A stretch of DNA of 29,578 nucleotides from Candidatus Iainarchaeum sp. GTDB lineage: Archaea > Iainarchaeota > Iainarchaeia > Iainarchaeales > CSSED10-239. The notes below the pieces were generated by a model. That model ran no database searches. It was not told the DNA's origin and saw nothing but the letters and a program-made list of their open reading frames with translations. The stretch is from assembly GCA_937968065.1 (NCBI GenBank), contig CALBUD010000043.1, positions 1 through 29,578 of the forward strand, written 5' to 3'. Position numbers and translations under genes: made by a program. Shown here piece by piece: positions 4,813-25,764 of this stretch (position 1 is its first letter; each line of letters begins with the position of its first letter).

Positions 4813-4856
4813 AATAAAAAATAGTTTTTAAATATAAATTAAAAAGTGATTAAAAA

Positions 4857-5294: not shown

Positions 5295-5314
5295 TCAAAT
5301 ATTGTTTCTAAAAT

Positions 5315-7480
5315 TTAAGCAACACCTTTCTCTGTTTTCTTTTTTGTTTCTTTTTTTACATTATTAATTTCTTTAATTGAATCTTCTAAATATTTTTCTG
5401 TAATTGTTAATTTTTTTTCTTTTCCAGAAATATTCTCTCTTAAAACTTTCATACCGCTATTTCTAATAATTTCTTCAATGTGTGCTCCTGAAAACCCTTC
5501 TGTTTCTTTTACAATTTTTTTTATATTTATTTTTCCTTCTACTTTCATTTTAGATAAATAAACATTAATAATTTGTTCTCTTGATTTTTCATCAGGCAAA
5601 GGAATTTCTAATTTTACATCAAATCTTCCTGGTCTTAAAAAAGCAGGATCTACAATATCAATTCTGTTTGTAGCACCAATAATAATAATGTCTTTTAATT
5701 TAGATATTCCATCCATTTCTGTTAAAAGTTGAGCAACAACATTTTTTGAAACCCCAGAAAGATCTTGGTTATTTCTGTGTGAGGTTATAGCATCAATTTC
5801 ATCAAAAAAAATAATTGATGGAGCTACTTGTCTTGCTTTTTTAAAAACATCTCTTATTTTTTTTTCAGATTCTCCAACCCATTTATTAAATATCTCTGGC
5901 CCCTTTATAGATATAAAATTTGCAGAACTTTCATTTGCAATTGCTTTTGCAATCATTGTTTTACCAGTGCCTGGAGGGCCATATAAAAGAACTCCAGAAG
6001 GAGGATTTATTCCAATTTCTTTAAATTTCTCTACATATTTTAAAGGCCATTCAATCATTTCTTTAAGTTTGTTTTTTTGTTTTTCAAGACCACCAATATC
6101 GTCCCAAGAAACTGAAGGGATTTGAACTTGAACCTCTCTTAAAGCAGATGGTTCTACAACATTCAAAGCGTCCAAGAAATCTTGCTGAGTTATAATTAAT
6201 TTATCTAAAACTTCTCTTGATAAATATTTTCCACTTTCTTTATTAATCAAAGGCATCAATCTTTTAATAGCTTTTAAGGCAGCTTCTTTACAAAGAGCTG
6301 AAATATCTGCTCCTGAAAAACCATTTGTAATTTCAATAATTTCATCTATATTTAAATTCTCAATAGGCATACCTCTTACATGCACCATTAATATTTCTTT
6401 TCTTGCATGTTTATCAGGAACTGAAATTTCAATTTCTCTATCAAATCTTCCTGGTCTTCTTAAAGCAGGATCAATAATTTCTGGCATATTTGTGGCAGCA
6501 ATAACTACAACTTGTCCTCTTGCAGTTAATCCGTCCATTAAAGTTAAAAGTTGAGCAACAATTCTTTTTTCTGTTTCTCCATGTATGTTTTCTCTTTTAG
6601 GAGCAATAGCATCAATTTCATCTATAAAAATAATTGCAGGTGCGTTTTCTTCTGCTTCTTTAAAAATATTTCTTAAATTTTCTTCAGATTTTCCATAAAC
6701 TCCAGAAACAATTTCTGGACCGTTAATAGTTATGAATTTTGCATCAGTTTCAGAAGCAACTGCTTTTGCAAGAAGAGTTTTTCCAGTTCCTGGAGGTCCA
6801 TATAACAAAACACCTTTTGGAGGAGAGATTCCTAATTTTTTAAAAACTTCTGGTCTTTTTATAGGAAGTTCAACTAATTCTCTAATAGCTTCAATTTCTT
6901 TTTTAAGTCCACCAATATCATCATAAGTAATTGATGGTGTTTTAAAATCATCTGATCTTTCTGAAATTATTATTTTTGTATTTTCTGTAATTCTTACAGC
7001 GTTTTTAGGTATTGTTTTATTTACAACTAACTGTAAATCTCTATATCCGTCTTCAGTTAAGATAGGAAGGCCAGGTATCTTTACTATGTTTTTTTCAATA
7101 ACATTTAAGTTCAATATTTTTTCTTTAATTATACTTTCTACATCTTTATTTAAGTTTATTTTTCTATTTTTTTCAATAACTGGAGAAAGGTTAATTGTTT
7201 GACAATTAGAAACAATTGTTTTTTCTATAAAAACAGGATCATCAATTGAAGCTCCTGAATTATATCTTAAAACCCCATCTATTTTTATTTGGTTTAATCC
7301 AACATCAACTTCTGTTCCTCTGGTTGCATAAGCTACAGCTTTTTTATTTCCTTCAATTAAAATAGCATCTCCGATAGATAATTTCATTTTATCAAAGACA
7401 AGAGGGTCTATTTTAGCCATTCCTTTTAAAGCGTCTTTAATATTTGTTTCTTTAACAGTTAATATTATTTTTTCAGTCAT
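5315..7480 (-). CDS. cdc48: Cdc48/VCP-like AAA+ ATPase (two AAA domains plus N-domain)
   Basis: 721 aa. Two Walker A motifs 'GPPGTGKT' and two Walker B motifs '[10 protein letters not shown]' / '[10 protein letters not shown]'. Second-region-of-homology '[14 protein letters not shown]' / '[14 protein letters not shown]'. N-domain '[17 protein letters not shown]'. Confidence 0.95.
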
Positions 7481-7554
7481 ATCTTTTTCTTATTTAATAT
7501 TTAAATAATATTATGATTAAAAGAGCTTAAAAAGATTTAGGTTATTTATAATAA

Positions 7555-9621: not shown

Positions 9622-9647
9622 TAATAACAAATCCTTTTTTTGTAAAT

Positions 9648-10118
9648 TTAAAAAGTAGTTTGTAAAATTTTACTTGGTAAGGTTTTACTATTTTTATGTT
9701 CTTTTAAGATTGTTAACAAATTTACTTTTAAGATACCATCAATTGAATAAATATTATCTAGTACTTTTTTTAAATCATTTTTATCTTGTGCAATAATCTT
9801 ACATATAAGGTTATATTCTCCAGTTACTTCAAGAACATATAAAGTATCTTCATTTTCTTTTAATTTTCTTATTATTTCATTTTTTTTAGAAGGATCTACA
9901 GAAATTAAAATTTCTAATATTTCTTTATATCCAATAACATTATAATCTATTTCTGCAAAAATATTTTTTAAGATTCCTCTTTGCTTTAATCTTTCAAGTC
10001 TTTTTTTTATTGCAACATCTGTAAGATTAATGTCTTTTGCTATGTTTGCAAAAGAAATTCTTCCATCTTGAATTAATTTTTCAATAATATGTTTATCTAT
10101 TTTATCAATTATTTGCAT
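9648..10118 (-). CDS. Lrp/AsnC family transcriptional regulator
   Basis: 156 aa. N-terminal wHTH 'DKHIIEKLIQDGRISFANIAKDINLTDVAIKKRLERLKQRGIL', then an alpha/beta RAM-like domain ('VTGEYNLICKIIAQD'). Confidence 0.85.
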   Translation of the reverse strand: MQIIDKIDKHIIEKLIQDGRISFANIAKDINLTDVAIKKRLERLKQRGILKNIFAEIDYNVIGYKEILEILISVDPSKKNEIIRKLKENEDTLYVLEVTGEYNLICKIIAQDKNDLKKVLDNIYSIDGILKVNLLTILKEHKNSKTLPSKILQTTF

Positions 10119-10124
10119 ATTTTA

Positions 10125-10844
10125 TCACTTTAGTTGATGTCTTGGTTTTAATAAATTATATTTATTTAAATAAATTTCAGTTTTTAAAATTTCAATATAT
10201 GGAATTACAAAAATTATTAAAAAACCTGTAGATATAATTATTCCTGCAACTCCAGGTATTAAAACATCTAATAAATTTGTAATTAATATTAATATAAATG
10301 CACATACAAACAAAGTTATAAAATGAAACCAATTTCTTTTAAAATATTTTATACTTAAAAGAATTGACTTAGAAATTGTTTCATTTTCTAAAATAATTAT
10401 TTGTGGTACAAACCATAAAAATATAGCTATTAATAAAAATATTACTTGAACAATAATATTATTTAATAAATTTAAATCATATAAAATAGTAGATATTAAA
10501 AAAATTAGAATAAAAAAAGAAAAATTAAATTTTAAAAGTTTATAAAAATAATTTTTTATTTTTCTAAACGGAACTGTTTCTGAAAAATTATAATCTTTAC
10601 CAATTTTATATATTAAAACACTCTGTATCAAAGAATAAATAAACATGAAAATAAAAGTTGTAAATAATAAAATTATGATATCTACAAAAAAGGCATTTAC
10701 TAAAGTGTAAGAGATATTTAAGGCACCTCCAAAGATACTAATGAACGGATCTATAACAAAAAGTAAAAATATAAATAAAATACTGTATGAAAAAGCCAAT
10801 TTGTAATTTTCAAAATATTTTTTTAAACTTAATTCTAAATCCAT
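10125..10844 (-). CDS. Polytopic membrane protein, function unknown
   Basis: 239 aa with about 6 hydrophobic segments and no recognisable motif. It ends 6 nt upstream of the Lrp start on the same strand. Confidence 0.55.
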   Translation of the reverse strand: MDLELSLKKYFENYKLAFSYSILFIFLLFVIDPFISIFGGALNISYTLVNAFFVDIIILLFTTFIFMFIYSLIQSVLIYKIGKDYNFSETVPFRKIKNYFYKLLKFNFSFFILIFLISTILYDLNLLNNIIVQVIFLLIAIFLWFVPQIIILENETISKSILLSIKYFKRNWFHFITLFVCAFILILITNLLDVLIPGVAGIIISTGFLIIFVIPYIEILKTEIYLNKYNLLKPRHQLK

Positions 10845-10919
10845 ATCTAACTATTCTCTTTTTTTATATTATATATAATATCTTACAATTAATTTAAAAA
10901 CCTAACTTTTTGTGGGCAA

Positions 10920-12152
10920 TTACTTTGTTTTTAGAATATTGCCTAGTAAATAGTATTTATCTACTTTGTTTATCTTTACTTTTATTTTTTCACCAATATT
11001 TATATTTTCAAAAACAACAACTGATTTGTACTCATTTGTTTTTCCAATCATACTATTATTTTTACCTTTTTCTGTTATTAATATCTCTTTTGTTTTGTTT
11101 AAATATTTTTTATTATTTTCAAAACAAATTTTTTCAAAAAGATTTGTAATTTGTCTAGATCTTTCTTTTTTTATAGTTCCTGATAGTTCCTTGTATTTGT
11201 TTGCTTCTATATTTTTTCTTTGTCCGAATCTTGATATGTTTATAATATCTGGTTTTATTTTTTTAATTACTTTTAAAGTATTTTTGAAACTTTTATTATT
11301 TTCTGTTGGATATCCAACAATAATATCTGTTGCAATAGTTATATTTTTTATATTTTTTTTAAATTCAGTTATTATTTTAAAAGCATCTTCTATTTTGTAA
11401 TATCTGTTCATTTCTTTTAAGACTTGGTTCTCTCCAGATTGTATAGGCACGTGTAAAAACTTGTAAATTTTTTTATTTTTATAAATTTTAATAAGATCTT
11501 TTAGAATAGGTAAAAGATGTTGTGGATTTCCCATTCCTACCCTCACTTTAAAATCTTTTTTTATTTTTATAATTTCTTTTAAAAGTAAAACAAGATTTGA
11601 ATTAATGTCTTTACCATAACACGCACAATCTTGAGAAGTTAGATATATTTCTTTTGCGTTATTTTGAGTAATTTCTTTTTTAATTTCTTTAACTATTTGT
11701 TTGATAGGTTTACTTACAAGAGTTCCTCTTGCAAATTTAACTGCGCAATAATAACAATTTCCTAAACAACCGTTTGAAATTATTATTATTTTTGTAGTTT
11801 CTTTTATTTTTGCTTCTTTTCTTTTTCCAATTATCTTTTCAATTTTTTCTTTTTCTGAAACTTTAAAATATCTTGCATTTGGTATAATTTTTTTTAATGC
11901 ACTTTTATCAATATCAACCAAACACCCAAAAATAATTATTTTATTTTCATTTATTTTTTGTTCTTTAATTTTTTTCAAGAAATTAATTATTTTTGTTTGT
12001 GTTTGTTCTTTTACTCCACAAGTGTTTATCAAAATATAATCAGCCATTTTTATGTTGTTTAAATCATCTGTATATTCATCATTTTTAACTATTTCTAAAG
12101 TATCTTTTTTATTTAAAGTACAACCAAATGTTTTTACAAACAATCTAGACAT
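10920..12152 (-). CDS. Radical-SAM tRNA methylthiotransferase, MiaB-like archaeal/eukaryal (MtaB/CDKAL1) type
   Basis: 410 aa. UPF0004 N-domain cysteines ('FGCTLNKKD', 'INTCGVKEQT'). Radical-SAM 'CLGNCYYCAV' (CxxxCxxC). C-terminal TRAM-like 'IGEKIKVKINKVDKYYLLGNI'. Confidence 0.85.
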   Translation of the reverse strand: MSRLFVKTFGCTLNKKDTLEIVKNDEYTDDLNNIKMADYILINTCGVKEQTQTKIINFLKKIKEQKINENKIIIFGCLVDIDKSALKKIIPNARYFKVSEKEKIEKIIGKRKEAKIKETTKIIIISNGCLGNCYYCAVKFARGTLVSKPIKQIVKEIKKEITQNNAKEIYLTSQDCACYGKDINSNLVLLLKEIIKIKKDFKVRVGMGNPQHLLPILKDLIKIYKNKKIYKFLHVPIQSGENQVLKEMNRYYKIEDAFKIITEFKKNIKNITIATDIIVGYPTENNKSFKNTLKVIKKIKPDIINISRFGQRKNIEANKYKELSGTIKKERSRQITNLFEKICFENNKKYLNKTKEILITEKGKNNSMIGKTNEYKSVVVFENINIGEKIKVKINKVDKYYLLGNILKTK

Positions 12153-13896: not shown

Positions 13897-14874
13897 TTGA
13901 GTTTAAAATCAGATGCATCTTTTCCATGGACTGAAAAATATAGACCAAAAACATTAGATCAAATAATAGGTCAAAAACATATATTACCAAGACTTAAAAG
14001 TTATGTGGAAAAAAAAAGCATGCCAAATCTTTTGTTTGCGGGCCCTCCAGGGATTGGAAAAACATGTTCGGCCATAGCTCTTGCAAAAGAATTATTTAAA
14101 AATACATTTTCTCAAGACTTTTTAGAGTTAAATGCTTCTGATGAAAGAGGAATTGGGGTTGTAAGAGGAGCTATAAAAGATTTTTCAAGAACCATACCAT
14201 TAGGTGCTGATTTTAAAATAATTTTTTTAGATGAAGCTGATGCCTTAACAAATGACGCTCAACAAGCTTTAAGAAGAACCATGGAAAAATACACTGGAAC
14301 TGTAAGATTTATATTAAATGCAAATTATTCTTCAAAGTTAATTACTCCAATACAGAGTAGATGTTCCTTATTTAAATATAAACCTCTTTTAAAAGAAGAT
14401 ATTAAAGAATATTTATTATTTATTTCAAAACTAGAAAATATAACTATAGATGAAAATGCTATTGATGCTATTTTTGATGTTTGTGAAGGAGATATGAGAA
14501 CAGCTATTAACTATCTTCAGGCAGCATCTTCTATAAGCGATAAGGTAAATCTAGAAAACATATATGCAGTATCTAATTCTGCTAAACCACAAGATATCTA
14601 TAACATGATAGATGCATGTCTTTCTTTAGATTTTTTAAAAGCAAGAAGTTTTATGGAAAAGCTTTTGTTTGAACAAGGCTTGAGTGGAGAAGATATAATA
14701 AACCAAATCTATAAAAAAATAGTAGCATATCCTGATGATAAAATAACTATTGAACAAAAAATAAAAATTATAGATAAAATTGCAGAAATTAATTTTAGAT
14801 TGGTTGAAGGTGCAAACGATAGAATCCAACTTGAAGCTTTACTTGCACAAGTAATATTATTAAATTCAAAATAA
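13897..14874 (+). CDS. rfcS: Replication factor C small subunit
   Basis: 325 aa. 'PWTEKYRPKTLDQIIGQ', Walker A 'GPPGIGKT', 'FLDEADALT', 'SRC' box 'PIQSRCSLF' and 'GDMRTAIN'. TTG start is the only in-frame start upstream of the conserved box, with GTGAT 5 nt upstream. No intein. Confidence 0.92.
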   Translation: MSLKSDASFPWTEKYRPKTLDQIIGQKHILPRLKSYVEKKSMPNLLFAGPPGIGKTCSAIALAKELFKNTFSQDFLELNASDERGIGVVRGAIKDFSRTIPLGADFKIIFLDEADALTNDAQQALRRTMEKYTGTVRFILNANYSSKLITPIQSRCSLFKYKPLLKEDIKEYLLFISKLENITIDENAIDAIFDVCEGDMRTAINYLQAASSISDKVNLENIYAVSNSAKPQDIYNMIDACLSLDFLKARSFMEKLLFEQGLSGEDIINQIYKKIVAYPDDKITIEQKIKIIDKIAEINFRLVEGANDRIQLEALLAQVILLNSK

Positions 14875-14882
14875 ATATTTTA

Positions 14883-14888
14883 GGTGAT
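14883..14888 (+). promoter_or_regulatory. Shine-Dalgarno-like GGTGAT 6 nt upstream of the pilus ATPase ATG
   Basis: Read directly. It lies in the 20-nt gap after the rfcS stop. Confidence 0.55.
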
Positions 14889-14894
14889 TTAAAA

Positions 14895-16679
14895 ATGACA
14901 TCCTATATAGATGATTTAGTTAAAAAATATAATTCTGAAAAAGGAGAAGCTTCCTCTTCTAAAGAAAAAAATGATTTACCTTTAAAAAATGAAATTAAAG
15001 ATTTTTCAAAAGAAGGAGAAAAGAAATCAAGCACAGAAGAAAACAAAAATAAAGATGAAAAACCAAAAGAGATTTCTATAGAAGATCTTTCAAGAGAGGA
15101 TGTTTTTCAAAAACCTGTTGATAAAAAAAATAAAGAAGAAGCTATACAAAAATTAAGATCTTTAGAATCAAACAAAGATATTAAACAAGATGAGCTTGTA
15201 GGAGATAAAAACGAACCTTTTGAAAAACAAGAAGAACATGTAAAAGATGCGGTTTTAGTTACAAAGTATGGAGATGTAAAAATCTATAGATTAAAAAGTC
15301 AATCTCTTCTTCATTATTCAGTTCCAGTTCCAAAACCAAACTCCAGTCAAAAAATAATAATTAATACTTTAAAAGAAGCAGCAACAAGGCTTGTATCTTC
15401 AGATCCTTATAAGATAAGAGACCCTTTACAAAGAAAAAACATTTATTATCAAAAAATAATTGATATTTTAGAAACAGCTAAAGAAATAAACATTCCAAAA
15501 CATATGTTTCCTTTTTATGCAGATGCTGTTGTTAAAGAAATGACAGGTTATGGTATGATTGAACCTTTACTTCAAGATGATAAGCTTGAAGAAGTTATGA
15601 TTGTTGGTTCAAATAAACCTGTGTATGTTTATCATATAGATTATGGTATGATGACAACAAATATAACTTTTTTCTCAGATGACGGAATTTATGAAATTAT
15701 TGATAAAATTGCAAGAGGACTTGGAAAAAACATTGATATCTCAAATCCTCTTTTAGATGCAAGACTTCCAGATGGTTCTCGTGTGAATGCAACTGTTCCT
15801 CCAGCTTCAATTGATGGTTCAACTGTAACTATTAGAAAGTTTAGAGAGGATCCTTACACCATAATTGATCTTATTAATTTTAAAACAACAAACATAGAAG
15901 TTGCTGCCTTTTTATGGTGTGTGGTTGAAGGATTTGGAGCAAAACCAGCAAACATTTTAATATCTGGTGGTACAGGATCTGGAAAAACTACAACTTTAAA
16001 TGTTCTTGCAAACTTTATACCAGAAGCTGACAGAATTCTAACTATTGAAGACACTGCAGAATTAAAACTTCCATTAAAGCATGTTATTAGATTTGAAGGA
16101 AGACCACCTGGTCTTGAAGGAAAAGGAGAATTAAGTTTAGATATTTTAACTAAAAACACATTAAGAATGAGACCTGATAGAATAATTGTAGGTGAAATTA
16201 GACACAAAGAAGCAACCACTCTTTTCACTGCTATGAACACAGGACACGATGGATGTATGGGAACTGTGCACGCAAACTCTGCAAAAGAAACCTTAGTAAG
16301 ATTAACTTCTCCACCAATGGATGTTCCTCCTTTAATGCTTGCAGGAATTGATTTTATAATTATTCAAAAAAGATTAAGAACTGCAAAAGGACAAGTTAGA
16401 AGAATAACTGCAATTGCAGAAGTTGTTGGTGTTTTAGAAGGTGATCCTAAAATCAACATGGTCTTTGCATGGAATCCTGAAACAGATTCTCTTGAAAGAA
16501 CAAAAGAACCTATCTATTATTTTGATGTTATAAAAACTTATACCAATTATAATGACGAGCAAATAAAACAAAAAATAGAATTTAGAGCAAAATTATTAAA
16601 AGAAATGGTTGATAAAAAAATAAGAAGTATTGAAGATGTTGCAGAAGAAGTACAAAAAGAATATATTTTGAAAAGATGA
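14895..16679 (+). CDS. Type IV pilus assembly ATPase (T2SSE/FlaI/PilB/TadA superfamily) with ~115-aa charged N-terminal extension
   Basis: 594 aa. Walker A 'ISGGTGSGKTTTLNVL', Asp box 'ILTIEDTAEL', Walker B 'RPDRIIVGEIR', His box 'GHDGCMGTVHANSA'. GGTGAT SD 6 nt upstream of the ATG. Confidence 0.9.
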   Translation: MTSYIDDLVKKYNSEKGEASSSKEKNDLPLKNEIKDFSKEGEKKSSTEENKNKDEKPKEISIEDLSREDVFQKPVDKKNKEEAIQKLRSLESNKDIKQDELVGDKNEPFEKQEEHVKDAVLVTKYGDVKIYRLKSQSLLHYSVPVPKPNSSQKIIINTLKEAATRLVSSDPYKIRDPLQRKNIYYQKIIDILETAKEINIPKHMFPFYADAVVKEMTGYGMIEPLLQDDKLEEVMIVGSNKPVYVYHIDYGMMTTNITFFSDDGIYEIIDKIARGLGKNIDISNPLLDARLPDGSRVNATVPPASIDGSTVTIRKFREDPYTIIDLINFKTTNIEVAAFLWCVVEGFGAKPANILISGGTGSGKTTTLNVLANFIPEADRILTIEDTAELKLPLKHVIRFEGRPPGLEGKGELSLDILTKNTLRMRPDRIIVGEIRHKEATTLFTAMNTGHDGCMGTVHANSAKETLVRLTSPPMDVPPLMLAGIDFIIIQKRLRTAKGQVRRITAIAEVVGVLEGDPKINMVFAWNPETDSLERTKEPIYYFDVIKTYTNYNDEQIKQKIEFRAKLLKEMVDKKIRSIEDVAEEVQKEYILKR

Positions 16680-16680
16680 C

Positions 16681-16692
16681 TTTTATTTTTTT
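16681..16692 (+). terminator. Oligo-T tract (T4-A-T7) immediately after the ATPase stop codon
   Basis: Archaeal termination commonly uses oligo-T. A 120-nt AT-rich gap follows before the platform gene. The AT-rich background lowers specificity. Confidence 0.3.
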
Positions 16693-16799
16693 AAAATAAA
16701 TTATAAAAAACTATAAATATAAAAAGGAATAGGTAATATATTTAAATATAATAGTTTACATTATATATAGAAAAAAAATAATAAAAATATTTTTTTAAT

Positions 16800-17942
16800 A
16801 TGGACTCAAAGAAAATAGAACTTTTAAAAAGTGATTTAGATAAATCTAAAAAATCAAAAGACTTAGATATAGATCTTGATGCTGTCCAAAATATTGTTGC
16901 AAAAATGAAAAAGAAAGATAGTAAAATAAGTTCTGAATCTTTGCAAGATAATAATTTAAAAGAACTAAGATCTGCAATATCACAAGGAAGACTTTCACAA
17001 CTAGATGTTAATTCAGCATCAAAGCTTGCAGAAAATCTTGATAGTGATTTAGAAAAATCTGCAGTCAAATATTATTCTCCATTTAAAAGATTTATTGATT
17101 CTATTGTTCTATCTATTTTAAAAAACCCTTTAGGTAAAAAAATATCTTTTCTTTTAACTTCTGCAAACTATAAAAGGACTTTAGTTCAACATCTTGTAAT
17201 TTCTACAATTTTTTCATTAATTCTTGCAACTATTATAACTTTTATGTTATTTTTTATTTTTTTAGCAACAAAACCAGTGTGGCTTATCTCTTTGTTATTT
17301 ATTTGGCCATTTTTATTCTTTATAGGACTTTATTCCTTTTCTTATTTAGTTCCTTTACAAAAAGCAAAGATGCGTGGAATAATGATTGATGTAGAGCTTC
17401 CATTTGCTTTAAGACACATTGCAACTGAACTTCAAGCAGGGATTGGGCTTTATAAAGTTTTACAGTCTGTCGCTGCAAATGACTATGGTGTTCTTTCAGA
17501 AGAGATGAATAGAACTATTCTTGAAATTGAAAATGGAACTGATACAAAAACAGCTTTAAGACATGCTGCTTTAAGAAGTCAATCTAAAAACTATAATGTT
17601 GCATTATTCCACATTGTAAGAACTTTAAACACAGGTGGAAATCTTGCAAACACAATTAACAGTGTTGCAGACTCTGTTGCTTTTGATCTTTTAGAAAATG
17701 CAAAAACCTTTGGAGAAAAAATGAATTTCTTTGGAATTATTTTTATTTTTGTTGCTATTGTACTTCCTGTTTTTGCAGCAATTTTAGGTGCGATTGCAAA
17801 TGCTCCAATAGGACAAGACGGAGCGTTGTTTTTACCAGGAGTTATGACTTCGACAACTCTTGCAATTATTTTCTTAGTTGCTTTACCAATAATATTTATA
17901 TTTTTAATATTTTATATAAAAATGATAGAACCAAAAATGTGA
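16800..17942 (+). CDS. Pilus platform membrane protein, single T2SSF domain (TadB/TadC/EpdJ-K-like), with ~90-aa charged N-terminus
   Basis: 380 aa. T2SSF-like cytoplasmic domain 'LPFALRHIATELQAGIGLYKVLQSVAAN...ENGTDTKTALRHAA...LNTGGNLANTINSVAD' flanked by TM segments. Confidence 0.8.
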   Translation: MDSKKIELLKSDLDKSKKSKDLDIDLDAVQNIVAKMKKKDSKISSESLQDNNLKELRSAISQGRLSQLDVNSASKLAENLDSDLEKSAVKYYSPFKRFIDSIVLSILKNPLGKKISFLLTSANYKRTLVQHLVISTIFSLILATIITFMLFFIFLATKPVWLISLLFIWPFLFFIGLYSFSYLVPLQKAKMRGIMIDVELPFALRHIATELQAGIGLYKVLQSVAANDYGVLSEEMNRTILEIENGTDTKTALRHAALRSQSKNYNVALFHIVRTLNTGGNLANTINSVADSVAFDLLENAKTFGEKMNFFGIIFIFVAIVLPVFAAILGAIANAPIGQDGALFLPGVMTSTTLAIIFLVALPIIFIFLIFYIKMIEPKM

Positions 17943-17945
17943 TAA

Positions 17946-18848
17946 ATGTTGACATCAAAAAGATTAGAAAGATACCAAGTATTTTTATTAGGGTTGAAAA
18001 TAAAAGTTCCTGCTAAAGTATGGATTCTTTTAATTTTCTTTTTAAGTCTGATCTTAGGTGTGTTAGGTTTTTTAATAGATGTAAAGATAGGTATTCTATT
18101 ATTTGTAAATGGTTTAGTTCTAGGTCTTGGACTTCCAATGTATGTTTATTATAAAAAAATAAGAACTATTGAAAGATATTGGCCAGAAGCTTTAAAATTA
18201 ATAGCAGACACCATGAAAGCAGGATCTTCTTTTGATTATGCTTTAAGAGAAGTAACCTCAGCTGACTTTGGTCCAGTTTCTTTTGAGATTAGTGAAGCTA
18301 TAAGAAGACTTGAGATGGGAGATACCATGCATGTTGCATTAAGTTATCTTTCATTAAGAATAGAATCTAAAATTGTAAGAAGAACAGTTACATTAATACA
18401 AGAATCTTTAAGATCAGGTGCACAACTTGCTGATGTTTTAGAAGAAATTGCAAATGATACTAAACAATTATATAGAATTAAAAAAGAAAGACATACAAAA
18501 ACAATGCTTCAAACAATCTTTATTGTTGCAGCAAGTGCTGTTATTGCTCCATTTATTTTTGGAATGACAAGAGTTATAACTGGTTTTTTAACAGATATAG
18601 CAGCAACAACAGGTATTGCAACAGCAGAAGCTCTTGAAGTTTCTTTAGTTACACAAAATAGAATCTTTTTATTCTTAGATATTTATATTGTTATTGAAAT
18701 CTTTGCAGCTTCTGCAATGATTAGTGTTATGAGAGAAGGAGATTTAAGTTTTGTTGTAATTTTCTTCCCTGTGTTAGTTACTTTAGGATATATTATTTAT
18801 TTCTTATCTCAAGTAGTTTTAAATTTAATGCTTTCAGGATTGGTATAA
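17946..18848 (+). CDS. Pilus platform membrane protein, second single-T2SSF-domain paralogue
   Basis: 300 aa. 'WPEALKLIADTMKAGSSFDYALREVTS...GDTMHVALSYLS...LRSGAQLADVLEEIAND' flanked by TM segments. Starts 3 nt after the upstream stop. Confidence 0.8.
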   Translation: MLTSKRLERYQVFLLGLKIKVPAKVWILLIFFLSLILGVLGFLIDVKIGILLFVNGLVLGLGLPMYVYYKKIRTIERYWPEALKLIADTMKAGSSFDYALREVTSADFGPVSFEISEAIRRLEMGDTMHVALSYLSLRIESKIVRRTVTLIQESLRSGAQLADVLEEIANDTKQLYRIKKERHTKTMLQTIFIVAASAVIAPFIFGMTRVITGFLTDIAATTGIATAEALEVSLVTQNRIFLFLDIYIVIEIFAASAMISVMREGDLSFVVIFFPVLVTLGYIIYFLSQVVLNLMLSGLV

Positions 18849-18849
18849 A

Positions 18850-19032
18850 ATGAAATCAAAAATAAAAAGAATATTAAAAGAGAATAAGGGTCAGATTTCT
18901 TTAGAGTTAATTATTATATTAGGTGTAGTTATATTAGTAGCTTTAACTGTTGGTATATATCTTAAACAGACCTCTGCAAAAAACGTTGGAACAAGCATAA
19001 GTTATCAAAGAATTGTAGAGGGAGGAAGTTAG
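18850..19032 (+). CDS. Flp-sized class III signal-peptide prepilin (mature ~46 aa)
   Basis: 60 aa. 'KENKG|QISLELIIILGVVILVALTVGIY' is a basic leader, K-G-Q cleavage motif, Glu at +5 and one hydrophobic helix. No Cys. ATG lies 1 nt after the platform gene stop. Confidence 0.7.
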   Translation: MKSKIKRILKENKGQISLELIIILGVVILVALTVGIYLKQTSAKNVGTSISYQRIVEGGS

Positions 19033-19053
19033 AAACTAGGAAAGCTTTAGTTT
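19033..19053 (+). terminator. Weak hairpin AAACTA-N9-TAGTTT directly after the small pilin stop, followed by a T-rich stretch
   Basis: 6-bp perfect stem (19033-19038 / 19048-19053), extendable by two G-U pairs, then 'gttttctt'. Confidence 0.25.
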
Positions 19054-19106
19054 GTTTTCTTAAAAAGAAAGTTATATAAAGTTATTGCTTTACTAATTAA
19101 TTAATT

Positions 19107-19127
19107 TAACTTATGAAAAATAAGTTA
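19107..19127. repeat. 8-bp inverted repeat TAACTTAT-GAAAA-ATAAGTTA upstream of the candidate major pilin gene
   Basis: Read directly. Centre is ~64 nt upstream of the ATG at 19181. Could be an operator or a 5'-leader stem-loop. Confidence 0.6.
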
Positions 19128-19180
19128 TGCACTTAATGTGTAAAAAAATATTAAAAAAAATATAAAAAGGTGTTTAAAAA

Positions 19181-19705
19181 ATGAATAAAAAAATAAAAGG
19201 ACAAGGTGCGCTTGAATACCTTCTATTAATAGGTGGTGCAGTTTTAATCGCAGTAATTGTTATTGCGTTACTTGTTGGTATGGGTGGTCAATCAAGAGAT
19301 ACTGCTACAGAGCAAGGAGAAAGAGCTCAACAAGCAACAGATATTGCTCAACCAGCTCAAATTACAGGTATTGAATCATTTAGAGATGATTGTGTAGATA
19401 CTCCTGCTAATGCAAAATTTTCATTATCATGGGTTCCTGTTGGTGACGGTGGTGTTTATGAATTAATAATTAAAGATTCTAGAGGTAATATATTAGACGT
19501 AAGTTTAGATGATATGGATACAAATGATTTAGATCCTATAAAAACAGCTAATGTTACTGGTTCTGTTAATATCAATTCAGAAGCAGACGGAAATTCAATT
19601 AGTCCTGCAAATAATTGTGGAGACACATTCACTGCAGTAATTAAAACAACTAAAAACCAACAAACTGTAAATTCTCAATCAAGAATTTTCAGATGGTCAA
19701 ACTAG
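19181..19705 (+). CDS. Class III signal-peptide pilin with acidic beta-rich globular domain; candidate major pilin
   Basis: 174 aa. 'KKIKG|QGALEYLLLIGGAVLIAVIVIALLV'. Two Cys in the globular part ('DDCVD', 'NNCGD'). AGGTG SD 8 nt upstream. Own AT-rich upstream region, and a hairpin plus long oligo-T downstream. Confidence 0.8.
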   Translation: MNKKIKGQGALEYLLLIGGAVLIAVIVIALLVGMGGQSRDTATEQGERAQQATDIAQPAQITGIESFRDDCVDTPANAKFSLSWVPVGDGGVYELIIKDSRGNILDVSLDDMDTNDLDPIKTANVTGSVNINSEADGNSISPANNCGDTFTAVIKTTKNQQTVNSQSRIFRWSN

Positions 19706-19716
19706 AATTATAAATT

Positions 19717-19758
19717 AATATAGATTTTAATTAATCTATATTTTTTTTATTTTTTTTT
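19717..19758 (+). terminator. 10-bp stem hairpin followed by T8-A-T9 after the candidate major pilin gene
   Basis: 19717-19726 (AATATAGATT) pairs with 19733-19742 across a 6-nt loop. Oligo-T runs follow at 19741-19748 and 19750-19758. It starts 12 nt after the TAG stop. Confidence 0.55.
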
Positions 19759-19817
19759 AAAAATTAATTTAAATATTTATAAAAAAAGAAGATAAAATAA
19801 AAAGAAAGTGATATATA

Positions 19818-20249
19818 ATGGATTTTATAAAAAATAAAGGAAAAGGACAAGGTGCCTTAGAATATTTATTAATTATTGGAGCTGCATTAATTGTCGCTGT
19901 TACAGTTATTGTTCTTGTAATTAGTATGAGCGGATCTAGTACAGAACAAGCAGGACAACAAGGTGAAACCTTAAGTACATTAATCGATAATGCATTAAAT
20001 CCTCCTGTTGTAACTTATATTAATGGTTGTGGAGATGGTGCAAAAATACATTTAATTGAAACTGAGACAAATGGTACTTATAAAATTTATAAGGATGGAA
20101 CTGCTGTTGGAGGCATATATACTGCAAGTAATGGAATTATTACTTTAGATTTAGAATCCGCAGAGTCAACAGATAGAATAACAGTTAGTTTAGTAAAAAA
20201 CAACAGAGAATCAAGACCTTCAACACCATCAAGTAGATGTACTCCATAA
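19818..20249 (+). CDS. Class III signal-peptide pilin, paralogue of 19181..19705
   Basis: 143 aa. 'NKGKG|QGALEYLLIIGAALIVAVTVIVLVI'. Two Cys ('NGCGD', 'SRCTP'). 'TYKIYKDGTAVG...ITVSLVKNNRESRPS' resembles FN3-like beta-sandwich patterns. GTGAT 5 nt upstream of the ATG. Confidence 0.8.
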   Translation: MDFIKNKGKGQGALEYLLIIGAALIVAVTVIVLVISMSGSSTEQAGQQGETLSTLIDNALNPPVVTYINGCGDGAKIHLIETETNGTYKIYKDGTAVGGIYTASNGIITLDLESAESTDRITVSLVKNNRESRPSTPSSRCTP

Positions 20250-20277
20250 ATAACATAATTAAAATTACAGAAAACAT

Positions 20278-20472
20278 ATGATTTCCAAAAAATTACAAGA
20301 TATTTTAAATGACCAAAAAGGTCAAGTCTCTTTAGAATATCTTGTGATGATTATCTTTGGAATGATTTTAGTTATAACAACCGGACTTGTTATTCTAAAT
20401 TTAAATAGTTTAGTAACTGTTGCAAAAGCTAAAATATTGACTTACAGGGATAACATTTTATCTTCTTTATAG
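20278..20472 (+). CDS. Flp-sized class III signal-peptide prepilin (second copy)
   Basis: 64 aa. 'NDQKG|QVSLEYLVMIIFGMILVITTGLVIL'. No Cys and a short C-terminal tail. Confidence 0.7.
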   Translation: MISKKLQDILNDQKGQVSLEYLVMIIFGMILVITTGLVILNLNSLVTVAKAKILTYRDNILSSL

Positions 20473-20503
20473 TTTTTTTTAAAATAAAAACTAAATTTTT
20501 TTT
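20473..20503 (+). terminator. Two T8 tracts after the second small pilin gene
   Basis: T8 at 20473-20480 directly after the stop, and T8 at 20496-20503. AT-rich background. Confidence 0.3.
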
Positions 20504-20517
20504 AAAAGGAAACAACT

Positions 20518-21639
20518 ATGTTTAATTTTTCTTTTTTTATATTTTCAATAACTCTTTTATTTTTAATAATTGCAAGTTTTTCAGATTTAAAAAAAAGAAC
20601 CATACCAAACAGTTTAGTTTTTTCTCTTTTAATCTTAGGAGTTATTATGAAGATTATAGAAGCAATTACTTTTTCTGAAATTAATATTTTCTTAAATGCT
20701 TCTTTATCTTTTATAATTACTGTTTTTGTATCTTACATTTTATGGGAAGTTGGTCTTTTTGCAGGTGGAGATTTAAAACTTTTTGCAGCAATCTCTTTTC
20801 TAAATCCTTTCAATCTTAATTTTTTAGGTTTTATTTTTTCTTTTGGAGTTATTAATTGGCCAATCTTTGCATTAACTTTAATAATTGTAAGTATTCTTTC
20901 AACAGCACCATTACTTATCCTTCATTCTTTGTATTATTTTATATTTAAAGGACATCATTTTATTTTATGGGAAATTTTAAAATCAAAGAACAACATTTCT
21001 TCATTTATTAATTCTGTTTTAATTATTTTCTTTATAAGTTCTTTTCTAAATATATTCTCACTAAATATATCTTATTTAATTTACTTTTTATTTTCTATTT
21101 TCTTTTTGTTGTTTTTTAGAAAGATAGAAAAACACAACAAAAACCATTTTTATTATTTAATATCTATTTTCTATGTTTGTTTAATAATATATTCAATTAT
21201 TTGTAAACAAAACCTCTTCTCTTTTTATGATTTTATAACAATTGTAATTATGATAAAACTAATCTTTTTACTTGTTACAATCTATAGAATAATTTCAGAG
21301 AAAATACTTAAAGAAACTAAAAAAATAAAAGATTTAAAAGAAGGAGATGTTGTATATAATAATTATTATAAAATAGGTTATAAAACTATTGAAAAAAACA
21401 TATCTTTTATTAATTATATTAAACAAACTATAAAAAACAACTATTCAAAAAATCTAATTATTGATTCTAGAAAGGTTGGTGGCTTAACTTCTAAAGACAT
21501 AACCTTTTTAAAGAGTTCTTATAAACATAATTTAGAGAAACCAGTAATTTTAAAGAAGACAATTCCATTTACCCCTTCAGTTTTAATAGGGTATCTAATA
21601 TTAAATGTTTTGGGAGATTTTATCTGGATGTTAATTTAA
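20518..21639 (+). CDS. Prepilin peptidase, A24 family GxGD aspartyl protease (EppA/PibD/FlaK-like) with large insertion
   Basis: 373 aa. First catalytic Asp 'FSDLKKRTIPN' (D23), second 'FAGGDLKLFAAI' (D85). C-terminal helix 'IPFTPSVLIGYLI' is typical of the family end. Extra TM segments and a ~85-aa soluble segment lie between them. Confidence 0.85.
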   Translation: MFNFSFFIFSITLLFLIIASFSDLKKRTIPNSLVFSLLILGVIMKIIEAITFSEINIFLNASLSFIITVFVSYILWEVGLFAGGDLKLFAAISFLNPFNLNFLGFIFSFGVINWPIFALTLIIVSILSTAPLLILHSLYYFIFKGHHFILWEILKSKNNISSFINSVLIIFFISSFLNIFSLNISYLIYFLFSIFFLLFFRKIEKHNKNHFYYLISIFYVCLIIYSIICKQNLFSFYDFITIVIMIKLIFLLVTIYRIISEKILKETKKIKDLKEGDVVYNNYYKIGYKTIEKNISFINYIKQTIKNNYSKNLIIDSRKVGGLTSKDITFLKSSYKHNLEKPVILKKTIPFTPSVLIGYLILNVLGDFIWMLI

Positions 21640-21680: not shown

Positions 21681-22160
21681 ATGAAAAATAAAAAAGGCCA
21701 AATTGCTATTGAATATATTATTTTTATATCTGTTTTATTATTATTTTTTCAAGCAATAGTATATCCTAATATAAATTTTTCAGAAAATGTGATTACTGAT
21801 ATTTATAATGCGACCCAGACAAAACAATCTATTGAAAAATTAGCAGAAGGCATTTCTTCTTTTTCTAGTTCTTCAGGATATGGTACTCGTTCAGTTTATT
21901 TCTATCTCCCAAATAATGGGGAATTTAAAGGTTGTGTGCAAGGAGGGGGAGTTACAAACCTTTCTTATTCTGTACAATTATCTCAACAAAATCCAAAACC
22001 AAGTTATATTTCTTCATGTGATGTAAATGCTCTTTGTAATTTTAAAAGAAAAATTTATATTGGCAAGGCCAATATTACTTGTACTGCTGTAGGCCCTGGT
22101 TTTAATGGTTATTTAAAAATTACAAAAGAAGAAGATGGTGATATAATTGTTGAACCATAA
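21681..22160 (+). CDS. Class III signal-peptide minor pilin-like protein
   Basis: 159 aa. 'KNKKG|QIAIEYIIFISVLLLFF'. Four Cys and four N-x-S/T sequons (NFS, NAT, NLS, NIT). Confidence 0.7.
   Translation: MKNKKGQIAIEYIIFISVLLLFFQAIVYPNINFSENVITDIYNATQTKQSIEKLAEGISSFSSSSGYGTRSVYFYLPNNGEFKGCVQGGGVTNLSYSVQLSQQNPKPSYISSCDVNALCNFKRKIYIGKANITCTAVGPGFNGYLKITKEEDGDIIVEP
22137..22142 (+). promoter_or_regulatory. Internal Shine-Dalgarno-like GGTGAT inside the 3' end of the upstream pilin gene, serving the TTG-initiated overlapping pilin gene
   Basis: GGTGAT read directly. TTG codons at 22147 and 22150. Confidence 0.5.
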
Positions 22161-22512
22161 AGCTCAAACAAGCATAGAGTTTTTAATGGTAATTTTATTT
22201 TTAATTCTTATAGCTATAACTGTTAGTGTTTTTTTAACTTCAACTTTTGATATTAGTGTTTCTGTTTATAAAACTAAAAACAGAACTTTAGAATATATTT
22301 CTTTATATCAAGATCCTTTGTATATTCAAAGCATAACTTATAATTATAATAATACTAATCTTGATATGTTTGTTTCTTTAAATAAAACACCAAATAACCT
22401 TTGTCCTGATCAAAACTATTTTGAGGAAAAATATAACTATGGATCTTTAAAAGATTATTTACAAACAAACACTAAATTTGACACAGTTACAATAACATTA
22501 TATTGTAACTAA
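22147..22512 (+). CDS. Class III signal-peptide minor pilin-like protein (TTG start, overlaps upstream gene)
   Basis: 121 aa. 'LNHKA|QTSIEFLMVILFLILIAITV'. Two Cys and three sequons. The first in-frame ATG would delete the signal motif. GGTGAT at 22137-22142 lies 4-7 nt upstream of tandem TTG codons (22147, 22150). Confidence 0.6.
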   Translation: MLNHKAQTSIEFLMVILFLILIAITVSVFLTSTFDISVSVYKTKNRTLEYISLYQDPLYIQSITYNYNNTNLDMFVSLNKTPNNLCPDQNYFEEKYNYGSLKDYLQTNTKFDTVTITLYCN

Positions 22513-22526: not shown

Positions 22527-23024
22527 ATGGATAAAAATTTATTATATTTACAAATCTTGTTTATGTTTGCAGTAATTGTAAACATATTTGTACAAAACAA
22601 ATTATTTTTAAATATATTGTTGGTGTTGCTTGTCTTTTTATTCTTTTTTAAAGAAGTGGATAATTATGTTTATAATAGAAATAAATATATGTATGTTGGA
22701 ATAGGTTTTTCTACAATTTTAGTTTTATTTATCTTAACTGAATATATAACTCACATATATTTCTTAGTATTTTTTATGTGTGGTGTTGTGTTATATCTTT
22801 ATCTTTATAAAGTTTTATTTAACACAAGTTATGGAACTGTTATAAAAAGTACAACTACAAGCATAACATTTAAAATTGAAGATTCTTTTTTTAAATCAAA
22901 AAAAGAACATACTTTAAAATATTCAAAAAAAGTTCCAATAGGGTCTACTGTCTTAGTTGAATTATCAAAATCAATTGTTTCTAAAAAACCCATAAAGGTT
23001 AAAAAAATAATTCCTAAACCATGA
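22527..23024 (+). CDS. Membrane protein (3-4 TM) with ~65-aa K-rich beta-type C-terminal domain, function unknown
   Basis: 165 aa. Hydrophobic N-terminal two-thirds, then 'YGTVIKSTTTSITFKIED...VPIGSTVLVELSK'. Starts 14 nt after the last pilin-like gene. Its stop overlaps the next start (ATGA). Confidence 0.55.
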   Translation: MDKNLLYLQILFMFAVIVNIFVQNKLFLNILLVLLVFLFFFKEVDNYVYNRNKYMYVGIGFSTILVLFILTEYITHIYFLVFFMCGVVLYLYLYKVLFNTSYGTVIKSTTTSITFKIEDSFFKSKKEHTLKYSKKVPIGSTVLVELSKSIVSKKPIKVKKIIPKP

Positions 23025-23389
23025 CTTTTAAATCTTTAAATATTTATTTAATAATTCTTACAGTTACTTCTCTTTTTATTTTATTTTTATATACTTTTTT
23101 TTATACTCCTTTAGAAATATCTTTGCTTGAAAACAACACTCTTCATTTAGAAAAAGTTGTTTCTGTTTCTGGAAATTTAAAAAACTTAGAGTTAAAAGAA
23201 AATAATTTATTTTTAGAGGCGTGCAACTATTCAAAATGTCTAAAAGCAGTTTATTTTAACATTTCTAAAAATAATCATGAATTACTAAATAACGCTTATC
23301 TTTATAATAAGCAAGTTAAGTTAACTGGTAAATACACTCTATATAATAAAAAAGAAGAAATTATAATTTATAAATTTGAGGTTAAATGA
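23021..23389 (+). CDS. Single-pass membrane-anchored protein with OB-fold-like ectodomain, function unknown
   Basis: 122 aa. N-terminal TM 'IYLIILTVTSLFILFLYTFF'. 'VVSVSGNLKNLELKENNLFLEACNYSKCLKAVYF...KQVKLTGKYTLYNKKEEIIIYKFEV' has the strand pattern of small OB-fold domains. CxxxxC pair. ATGA overlaps at both ends. Confidence 0.5.
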   Translation: MTFKSLNIYLIILTVTSLFILFLYTFFYTPLEISLLENNTLHLEKVVSVSGNLKNLELKENNLFLEACNYSKCLKAVYFNISKNNHELLNNAYLYNKQVKLTGKYTLYNKKEEIIIYKFEVK

Positions 23390-24573
23390 TATTTGATATT
23401 ATCTTAGGTTGTTTTTTAGGTTTTATTTTTGGTTTAATTCCCTCTCTTCACATTAATTTTATATCTTATCTATTCTTATATTTTGGATTATTTTTAGTTT
23501 TTCCAGATAAGTTTTATTTTTTCTTAAGTCTTTCAATCTCTCAATTAATAACAAGTTATCTTCCTCAGACTTTTTTCTCAGTTCCAAATGTTGAAAATAT
23601 AATGAATCTATTTCCTCTGCAAAGATTATTTTTAAAAGGAGAGGCTTTAAAAGCAATTTTTATAACTTTTGTAGGTTCTTTTTTTGGAGCTATCTTTGCA
23701 ATACTTTTACTTCCATTTCTTTATCTTCTTTTTTCTTCTCTAATAGGCTTTCATTTTTTTATTTCTTTTGCTATTCTTTTTGTACTTTTAAGTTTTGTTT
23801 ATTATCAAGAAAATCTAAAAGAAAGAATTATTGTTATTTTTATAATTCTCTCTTCTGGCCTTTTAGGTATTTTAACTTTAAAATACAATGTTTTTTTAAA
23901 AGAGTCTTTATTTGTGTGTGTTGTAGGATTATTTACTCTTCCTTTGTTATTTAAATCTATATTTGAAAAACAAACAAGAGTTTTTCAAAAAATAAATTTA
24001 AAAGAAATAAAATTAAATTTAAAAAAATCAATGATTTTTTCGTTTATGGGTTCTTTAGCATCAATGTTTATTATTCTAGTACCTTCTTTTTCATCCTCAC
24101 AAGCAGGAACCATGGTTTCAAGAATTAAAAGAAATCTTTCTTCTGAAGAATATATTTTATTATTTTCTAGTATATCCATAAGTGCTTTAATATTTTCCTA
24201 TTTTCTTGCTATGTTTTTTTATAAGCCAAGGCTAGGTTATTTTGCAATATTATTACTTGAAAAACAAATAATTCCAAGAACAGAGATTTTCTTTTTTATA
24301 ATAACTGTTCTTTTATCTGTTTGTTTAATTTTATTTATATTAAAATCAATAATCAAAGATATAATTGTTTTTATAAACAAACAAAATCTTACAAAAATAA
24401 ATGTATTTATCTTAATTTTTTCAATAGTTTTAGTTTTTTTAATATCTGGTATAAAGGCCTTACCAATTTTATTTTTAAGTGCTGTAATTGGGTATCTTCC
24501 TCTGCACTATAAAAAATCAAGAGTGATTTTAATGGCATACATTATGATTCCAACTCTTTTATTTTACCTATAA
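23386..24573 (+). CDS. Polytopic membrane protein (~10-11 TM), possibly TctA/DUF112-like
   Basis: 395 aa. N-terminus 'ILGCFLGFIFGLIPSLH' weakly resembles the TctA-family G-x-x-PG start. Otherwise no motif. Family assignment is tentative. Confidence 0.5.
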   Translation: MIFDIILGCFLGFIFGLIPSLHINFISYLFLYFGLFLVFPDKFYFFLSLSISQLITSYLPQTFFSVPNVENIMNLFPLQRLFLKGEALKAIFITFVGSFFGAIFAILLLPFLYLLFSSLIGFHFFISFAILFVLLSFVYYQENLKERIIVIFIILSSGLLGILTLKYNVFLKESLFVCVVGLFTLPLLFKSIFEKQTRVFQKINLKEIKLNLKKSMIFSFMGSLASMFIILVPSFSSSQAGTMVSRIKRNLSSEEYILLFSSISISALIFSYFLAMFFYKPRLGYFAILLLEKQIIPRTEIFFFIITVLLSVCLILFILKSIIKDIIVFINKQNLTKINVFILIFSIVLVFLISGIKALPILFLSAVIGYLPLHYKKSRVILMAYIMIPTLLFYL

Positions 24574-25310
24574 AGATTAAGTTTTAAAAGAAAAACAATA
24601 ATTTTATTTTTAAAACCAGGAATAAAAACTACTTTTTTCTTATCAAGTGCATTTATTGATTTTAAAACTACTTTTTCAGAAGACATGAATAAAAAAGAAG
24701 GTATTTTATCATATGTTTTTTCAAAAATCTTTGTTTTATTAAAGTTTGTTCTTGTAAAACCTGGACAAAGAGCTTGTATCTTTATGTTTTTCTTTTTTTT
24801 ATTAATCTCATGTTGCAATCCTTTTGAAAATTGAACAATATATCTTTTTGTAGAATTATAGATAATACTACTTATAGAAGAATATGTAAAAGCTGCAATT
24901 GATGCAAGATTAATTATTGTTCCTTTATTTCTTTTAATCATTTGTTCAATAACTGCTCTTGAAAGAAGTGTTGTTGCAAGAACATGCACGTTTATCATTT
25001 CTTCTGTTATCTTTATATCTGCTTCTATAAAATATTCTGGATCTCCAAACCCAGCATTATTTATTAAAACATCAACTTTTTCATTTTTAATTTTAATTAT
25101 AAGTTTTTTAATTTCTTCTGGTTTTGAAAGATCACAAATAAAATATTCGCAATTAATTTTATGTGTTTCTTCTAAGTCTTTTTTAATTTCCTCTAATCTT
25201 TTTTTATTTCTTGCAACTAAAAGTAAATCTTTTTTTCTTTTAGCATATTCATATGCAAAGGTTTTTCCAATTCCACTTGATGCTCCAGTAATTAATATTT
25301 TTTTTCTCAT
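24564..25310 (-). CDS. Short-chain dehydrogenase/reductase (classical SDR)
   Basis: 248 aa. 'TGASSGIGK' cofactor motif, 'NNAG', and catalytic 'S...YNSTK' (YxxxK). The 3' end overlaps the convergent gene by 10 nt. Confidence 0.85.
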   Translation of the reverse strand: MRKKILITGASSGIGKTFAYEYAKRKKDLLLVARNKKRLEEIKKDLEETHKINCEYFICDLSKPEEIKKLIIKIKNEKVDVLINNAGFGDPEYFIEADIKITEEMINVHVLATTLLSRAVIEQMIKRNKGTIINLASIAAFTYSSISSIIYNSTKRYIVQFSKGLQHEINKKKKNIKIQALCPGFTRTNFNKTKIFEKTYDKIPSFLFMSSEKVVLKSINALDKKKVVFIPGFKNKIIVFLLKLNLYR

Positions 25311-25374: not shown

Positions 25375-25764
25375 ATGGTTAAATGGTTTATTTATAAAGA
25401 TGTTCTTGAAAGCATAATGGAGTTTTCAAAAAGCTTTTATCCTAATGAATTTTCAGGAATGCTTTATTCTAAAGATAATATTATTGAAGATATATATATA
25501 ATTCCTCAAACAAAGAGCAATTATAACTCTGCTGTTATTCGTTTAGATTTAGTTCCTATGTCTTTTTATGTAAACGGCTCTGTTCATTCACACCCTACAC
25601 CAAATGGAGATCCTTCAAATGCTGATCTTTCTTTTTTTCAATCAAAGGATATAAATATTATAGCCTACTACCCTTTTTCTTTATCTTCTTTTAAAGCTTA
25701 TAATTCTTTTGGAAAAGAGGTGTGTTTAGAGGTAATAATACGCGAAGAAAACAAAAATTTATAA
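25375..25764 (+). CDS. Minimal stand-alone JAB/MPN (JAMM) metalloprotease domain protein
   Basis: 129 aa. Upstream Glu 'NEFSGML' and JAMM motif 'HSHPTPNGDPSNADL' (HxHx7Sx2D). Confidence 0.8.
   Translation: MVKWFIYKDVLESIMEFSKSFYPNEFSGMLYSKDNIIEDIYIIPQTKSNYNSAVIRLDLVPMSFYVNGSVHSHPTPNGDPSNADLSFFQSKDINIIAYYPFSLSSFKAYNSFGKEVCLEVIIREENKNL

Follow-up and report, generated by a model that had tools for sequence, protein, structure and literature searches.

A candidate DNA-translocation module of TctA-like, OB-fold and basic membrane proteins at the end of an archaeal type IV pilus cluster

What are three overlapping membrane-protein genes doing at the 3' end of an archaeal type IV pilus cluster? 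The question is raised by a 29,578-nucleotide (nt) stretch of DNA from Candidatus Iainarchaeum sp. (contig CALBUD010000043.1), the whole of which is referred to here as the window, in which open reading frames (ORFs) encoding proteins of 165, 122 and 395 amino acids (p165, p122 and p395) follow a series of pilin-like genes. A first-pass annotation treated these as a translationally coupled set of unknown function. The reading favoured here, which is given about an even chance of being correct, is that they constitute the membrane-translocation arm of an archaeal DNA-uptake (natural transformation) machine that is co-expressed with an Epd-type pilus. DNA as the substrate, the topology of the proteins in the membrane and the role ascribed to p165 are what we infer from the evidence set out below.

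The arrangement of the genes is as first described. The ATGA overlaps lie at exactly 23021-23024 (p165/p122) and 23386-23389 (p122/p395), and the preceding pilin-like ORF (22147-22512) has its stop codon at 22510-22512, leaving 14 nt (AAGGAAAAATAATT) before the ATG of p165 at 22527; with gaps of 14, -4 and -4 nt, the tight coupling of the three genes to those of the pilus is borne out. A Shine-Dalgarno-like motif, GAGGT, is found 5 nt upstream of p395. The GC content of the window is 25%, and its complement of genes, in which class III signal-peptide pilins occur alongside an RFC small subunit, CDC48 and DnaK, is archaeal. Because stop codons are so frequent at this composition, ORFs of 122, 165 and 395 codons cannot be attributed to chance (the probabilities of stop-free runs of these lengths being approximately 1e-5, 3e-7 and 2e-16, respectively), and conserved homologues exist for all three proteins. 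The architectures originally proposed were largely right, p165 having four transmembrane (TM) helices and a five-stranded basic beta domain, p122 a single TM helix and an OB-type domain, and p395 being polytopic. None of them is a canonical pilus component, as had also been stated.

What had been described as a weak TctA/DUF112-like N-terminus in p395 is in fact a strong match to the TctA family of Pfam (PF01970; E = 1.6e-27, 96.6 bits against a gathering cut-off of 28.9) that extends over the full length of the protein, with residues 5-383 aligned to positions 4-422 of the 423 in the profile. Hence p395 is a member of this family, a polytopic membrane protein resembling arCOG04469, and it aligns end to end with TctA-like proteins of Methanobacterium named 'tripartite tricarboxylate transporter permease'; those of the Methanobacteriales are 20-23% identical to it over their full length. 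No solved relative was found among PDB sequences using the TctA profile. This confident assignment is the part of an alternative raised in the first-pass annotation, that of an unrelated TctA-type carboxylate transporter, that has stood, and in the literature arCOG04469 has been interpreted as a carboxylate transporter (PMC5898192) and, in DPANN archaea, as a citrate importer (10.1101/2025.08.05.668663). The usual partners of such a transporter, however, were not found: neither TctB nor TctC is matched by p165, by p122, by the other window ORFs scanned (those outside 2206-12152, together with 10125-10844) or by 19 homologues of p165.

The partner to which p395 is coupled is of a quite different type. 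An N-terminal hydrophobic stretch at approximately residues 2-36, with a TM core at around 8-26, provides p122 with a single membrane helix, and the family to which it belongs, whose nearest aligned members are 46-50% identical to the window protein, matches PF01336 in 19 of 30 members (best E = 1.9e-12) and PF13742 in 13 of 30. The family profile also aligns weakly with the OB-fold of Stn1. In a low-confidence structural model the secondary structure elements run TM helix, three strands, helix and two further strands, which is the order of an OB-fold, and the leading Foldseek matches are mostly DNA-binding OB-folds, none of them significant. Of 37 family members, 35 carry a CxxxxC-like pair of cysteines, which would fit an extracytoplasmic domain. 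One homologue weakly matches DUF4131, the N-terminal OB domain of ComEC (E = 0.0058), which is a hint only. Judged from sequence, p122 is predicted to be held in the membrane by its N-terminus and to have as its ectodomain an OB-fold of the type that binds nucleic acids. A homologue search with p165 and p122 concatenated returned relatives of p165 only.

A pair of genes of this kind has been characterised in Methanococcus maripaludis JJ, in which the adjacent MMJJ_13020 and MMJJ_13030 encode a single-TM OB-fold protein and a TctA-like protein; a transposon screen and clean deletions revealed that the loss of either abolishes natural transformation, which is restored by complementation (Fonseca et al. 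2023; PMC10133366). In the same study, the TctA-like homologue was also found to be essential for transformation in Methanoculleus thermophilus, Epd type IV-like pili were likewise needed, the epd genes and eppA having emerged from the same transposon screen, and the TctA-like protein was proposed as the missing archaeal DNA transporter (PMC10133366). The window pair shares with this one its gene order, its Pfam families and its architectures, namely a single TM helix with a PF01336-type OB-fold, and a TctA protein without TctB or TctC, and the Methanococcus pair acts in a process that also requires Epd-type pili. The OB-fold of p122 is evident at the level of the family, behind a single N-terminal helix, and adjacency in the window is as close as the 4-nt overlap with p395. 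As p122 and p395 match the transformation pair in architecture and gene order, the description of all three proteins as being of unknown function does not hold for these two.

That such a gene pair acts in transformation is already published. Its fusion to an Epd-type pilus operon, the p165 (DUF2101-like) subunit and the pilin-like genes that travel with them are mentioned neither in two censuses of archaeal type IV filament systems nor in the papers found citing arCOG04469. The censuses mention neither a TctA-like nor an OB-fold component, and no paper was found that links TctA-like genes to archaeal pilus clusters. To our knowledge, archaea lack ComEC, and the TctA-like protein with its OB-fold partner is the only candidate for carrying DNA across the membrane in archaeal transformation. 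The operon provides independent evidence from genomic context: certain DPANN lineages have the putative translocon coupled, both physically and in translation, to its presumed pilus. It also brings in p165 as a possible further subunit and the two pilin-like proteins as candidates for dedicated minor pilins.

The structure of p165 was modelled with AlphaFold2 from an alignment of 14 sequences (mean predicted local distance difference test, pLDDT, 86.6; predicted template modelling score 0.75), giving helices at residues 3-21, 26-46, 51-71 and 77-97 and strands across residues 100-162. In this model the C-terminal domain is a five-stranded OB-like barrel, and nearly all of the leading Foldseek matches in the PDB are OB-folds or small barrels (RPA, CspA, S1 and eIF5A), the best E-value being only 0.044. 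The domain is markedly basic, with 22% lysine and arginine and 6% aspartate and glutamate, against window backgrounds of 14% and 12%, and the positive-inside rule thus predicts that the barrel is cytoplasmic. Many homologues (at the related loci numbered here L102, L003, L105, L110, L120 and L123) carry C-terminal poly-lysine tails of 5 to approximately 50 residues, reminiscent of DNA-binding tails. The family is very narrow: 14 proteins were retrieved by word search, and 12 representatives among 1.84 billion by an exhaustive profile search.

Attempts to place p165 within TctB, NfeD or any other known family gave no match in Pfam or NCBIfam. The one family to which it may be related is DUF2101 (PF09874). 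The window protein itself does not match DUF2101, while two of its homologues give weak matches that cover most of their sequence (E = 0.033 and 0.066), and at the divergent locus L128 the protein in the position of p165 is a true member (E = 1.9e-10; 41.3 bits against a cut-off of 22). Homology between p165 and this L128 protein was not supported, an hhalign comparison with the p165 family being negative; p165 is possibly a distant DUF2101 relative. At L128, where pilus genes, an OB-fold gene and TctA form an operon, the gene for this membrane protein (5577-6167) has pilin genes on either side. No mention of DUF2101 was found in the literature searched.

Were the DNA-uptake interpretation correct, the Epd-type pilus would bring DNA to the cell surface, where p122 would take it from the pilus with a nucleic-acid-type OB-fold held outside the membrane by its one-helix anchor. 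The TctA-like polytopic p395 would form the path through the membrane, and the very basic OB-like barrel of p165, often extended by a poly-lysine tail, would receive or tether the incoming strand on the cytoplasmic face. The ATGA overlaps couple the translation of the three genes, and co-assembly of their products would therefore be favoured.

The association between these genes extends well beyond the window. In all 44 loci with upstream DNA, comprising those of the window clade and the divergent L126 and L128, p122 is found directly upstream of the TctA gene, with gaps of -34 to +8 nt, the identity of the TctA proteins ranging from 26 to 100%. The p165 gene is directly upstream of p122 wherever the sequence upstream extends for at least approximately 900 nt, except in L128, and pilin, peptidase, platform and ATPase genes precede the p165-p122-TctA block wherever the flank allows. 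Linkage to pilus genes is hence conserved in all of the 20 or more related loci with enough flank, and also in L123 and L128. At L123 (1937-5318) the locus is rearranged, such that the gene ahead of two pilin-like genes, p165, p122, TctA and a JAB-domain gene encodes a large secreted protein (607 amino acids or more) rather than the A24 peptidase; this block has moved as a unit, and the linkage survives rearrangement. L128, which has a GC content of 46% and a TctA of only 26-27% identity, has the order T2SSE, two T2SSF, pilins, A24 peptidase, four pilins, DUF2101, four pilin-like genes, a TM-OB protein, TctA and JAB. OB-TctA adjacency is also seen in L126 and L130. In a neighbour-joining tree, the TctA of L128 groups with the type found in Woesearchaeota and Methanobacteriales, and the divergent TctAs (L126, L128 and L130) are placed apart from the window clade.

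A looser arrangement is evident in the Methanobacteriales, in four loci of which a TctA-like gene is approximately 1.2 kb from a T2SSE/T2SSF pair. The order TctA-like, PrmA-like (on the opposite strand), T2SSE and T2SSF is conserved between these loci (L009, L011, L092 from Methanobacterium paludis CP002772, and L093), in none of which does an OB-fold gene adjoin TctA. Downstream, the JAB gene directly follows TctA in most relatives (L005, L109-L111, L119-L123 and L128), and may belong to the same unit; in the window, the two are separated by a convergent SDR gene, which the 3' end of p395 overlaps by 10 nt.

Upstream of p165, the window contains a complete type IV pilus-like set (Table 1). 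An ATPase with two platform genes defines type IV filament (TFF) system 1, which includes the Epd pilus of Methanococcus and has been reported in methanogens, Thermococcales and DPANN (10.64898/2026.04.22.720090). The features of this Epd-like system are all present in the window: T2SSE, two T2SSF genes, PF04021 pilins, and a Peptidase_A24 protein with an Arc_PepC domain. This peptidase reaches 48.6 bits against the EppA equivalog NF053826, for which the cut-off is 450, although this is still its best NCBIfam match. Of the two pilin-like proteins that precede p165, that of 159 amino acids matches PF04021 weakly, while for that of 121 amino acids a weak precomputed match to PF04021 is on record for the L003 orthologue. 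The end of an RFC small-subunit gene, within the interval 13897-14894, is separated from the pilus ATPase gene by 20 nt, a juxtaposition kept in L001, L003 and L005.

Table 1. Coordinates of the pilus genes, the three module genes and their downstream neighbours in the window
Feature	Position	Strand	Characteristics
T2SSE ATPase	14895-16679	+	Pfam T2SSE 1.1e-48
Two T2SSF platform genes	16800-18848	+	Pfam T2SSF 1.3e-15 and 2.7e-15
Four class III signal-peptide pilins	18850-20472	+	Class_IIIsignal matches
Class III signal (prepilin) peptidase	20518-21639	+	Peptidase_A24 4.3e-13 and Arc_PepC 2.4e-07 (archaeal C-terminal domain)
Two pilin-like genes (159 and 121 amino acids; 14-nt mutual overlap)	21681-22512	+	N-termini resemble class III signal peptides
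p165	22527-23024	+	165 amino acid ORF
p122	23021-23389	+	122 amino acid ORF
p395	23386-24573	+	395 amino acid ORF
SDR (short-chain dehydrogenase) gene	24564-25310	-	Wedged between p395 and the JAB gene
JAB/MPN-domain gene	25375-25764	+	Prok-JAB 7.5e-06; HSHP...S..D motif

Runs of eight or more T residues are present in the longer gaps that follow T2SSE and the pilin genes pil60, pil174 and pil64 (16680-16799, 19033-19180, 19706-19817 and 20473-20517). These look like archaeal terminators, and the cluster probably comprises several transcription units rather than one operon. Since such runs are present in the 45 nt before the peptidase gene, and the gaps from the peptidase onward are only 41, -14, 14, -4 and -4 nt, the last unit would most likely run from the peptidase, probably its first gene, through the two pilin-like genes to p165, p122 and p395.

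Several considerations weigh against assigning these genes to DNA uptake. The region from RFC to GrpE-DnaK-DnaJ is syntenic throughout the window clade, unrelated genes included, and because of this much of the conservation of linkage within the clade may be plain shared ancestry. In 80 loci of Woesearchaeota, Pacearchaeota and Nanoarchaeota, the TctA-like gene is solitary, its neighbours being divergent genes, with no OB-fold, p165 or pilus gene within 10 kb; these came from a genome scan with a TctA alignment, which returned loci from these groups only. The linkage is hence not universal, and homologues without pilus-gene neighbours, which the first-pass annotation had named as counting against its idea, do occur in another lineage. 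The orthology of p122 and p395 to MMJJ_13020 and MMJJ_13030 is putative, being judged from their architectures, their Pfam families and the order of the genes. The window p122 is itself below the Pfam threshold and its single-sequence AlphaFold2 model is poor (pLDDT 57), and the structural matches of both OB-like domains, in p165 as well as p122, have E-values above 0.01. No TctA-like protein is known from biochemical work to transport DNA. Most archaeal arCOG04469 genes have been reported to stand alone (Makarova et al. 2015), and the piliation of the MMJJ_13020 and MMJJ_13030 mutants is not reported in the Methanococcus study (PMC10133366).

This last omission leaves room for a different explanation, in which the three proteins are an accessory module that assembles, anchors, glycosylates or retracts the pilus, and the transformation defect in Methanococcus is secondary to pilus loss. 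Such a role would suit the three genes, which probably form one transcription unit with those for the prepilin peptidase and two pilin-like proteins and which moved with pilin-like genes in L123, and it would also suit the position of the DUF2101 protein between pilin genes in L128. It is nevertheless rather unlikely: the solitary TctA-like genes far from pilus genes in 80 DPANN loci, and likewise in most archaea according to Makarova et al. (2015), are difficult to reconcile with it, the filament censuses mention neither TctA nor the OB-fold protein, and it is not obvious what an OB-fold of the nucleic-acid type and a barrel rich in lysine would do in filament assembly. The anchoring or alignment role suggested in the first-pass annotation is likewise possible, though without specific support.

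A second alternative retains the same machine and alters its purpose, with DNA or oligonucleotides being imported for nucleotide salvage in DPANN with reduced genomes, rather than for transformation. All of the evidence for DNA uptake applies equally here. The contig is very AT-rich and archaeal, its named relatives are DPANN ('Candidatus ainarchaeum', Woese- and Pacearchaeota), and DPANN often lack nucleotide synthesis. Furthermore, arCOG04469 has been inferred in all DPANN ancestors examined (10.1101/2025.08.05.668663). The window itself, however, offers no means of telling nutrition apart from recombination, and a purely nutritional role is considered unlikely. Least probable, and judged very doubtful, is an ordinary tripartite tricarboxylate transporter-type importer of a carboxylate such as citrate, lying downstream of the pilus genes by happenstance with p165 as its TctB-like small subunit: the full-length TctA match of p395, the four TM helices that p165 has in common with TctB and the synteny of unrelated genes across the wider region are in its favour, but no TctC was found among the ORFs scanned, p165 has no TctB match, the translationally coupled partner of p395 is a nucleic-acid-type OB-fold, an OB-fold/TctA-like pair is essential for transformation in Methanococcus (PMC10133366), and the pilin linkage survives both rearrangement (L123) and deep divergence (L128).

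Returning to the DNA-uptake interpretation, a bolder form of it can be advanced tentatively, and is on balance doubtful. It would hold that, in this DPANN lineage, a single operon encodes a complete, self-contained DNA-import machine: a pilus of the Epd type with two dedicated minor pilins, a receptor outside the membrane built on an OB-fold, a channel with the TctA fold and, on the inside, an OB-like receiver rich in lysine. Together these would be a non-homologous analogue of the bacterial ComEA/ComEC/ComF. If this were true, arCOG04469, the 'citrate importer' that is almost universal in DPANN and Euryarchaeota, would really be a nucleic-acid translocase, with which archaea with reduced genomes acquire DNA for genes or nucleotides. 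The operon also calls for caution wherever DPANN metabolism is reconstructed with arCOG04469 as an importer of citrate, and the compactness of the gene set, with six genes from the peptidase to TctA, suits it to heterologous or structural tests.

Elsewhere in the window, a gene for a tyrosine recombinase is followed by one for a corrinoid adenosyltransferase, both assigned by Pfam (571-5294). In the same interval, the next two genes appear to encode a large ribonucleotide reductase-like protein and a dUTPase-like protein, these translations having been read by eye only; together they would form a small nucleotide-metabolism cluster.

Among known systems, the bacterial ComEC/ComEA machinery follows the same logic of a type IV filament, an anchored extracytoplasmic OB-fold or DNA receptor and a polytopic channel. 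The window proteins differ in that p165, p122 and p395 have no match to the ComEC competence domain (PF03772), in lacking a beta-lactamase-like nuclease domain, in being separate small proteins and in having a TctA-fold protein as the candidate channel. With TctABC there is a full-length TctA in common, and p165, small and with four TM helices, is similar in size to TctB, whereas TctC and TctB were not found among the ORFs scanned and the coupled partner of p395 is an OB-fold protein. Bacterial TctA proteins are approximately 500 amino acids in length, and p395 is shorter. DUF2101 proteins share with p165 a multi-TM N-terminus, a C-terminal beta domain and, in L128, the same place in the operon; by contrast, the window p165 has no match to the family, the hhalign comparison was negative and the exhaustive profile search recovered only the narrow p165 family. 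The resemblance to TFF system 1 and the Epd pilus lies in the ATPase, the two platform genes, the several class III pilins and the dedicated A24 peptidase with Arc_PepC; a TctA-like and an OB-fold component, both present in the window operon, are mentioned in neither of the two published censuses. The closest parallel, the transformation pair of M. maripaludis, has locus tags distant from those of the epd genes, whereas the pair in the window is joined to the pilus operon, is translationally coupled, and has ahead of it two pilin-like genes and the gene for a third protein, p165.

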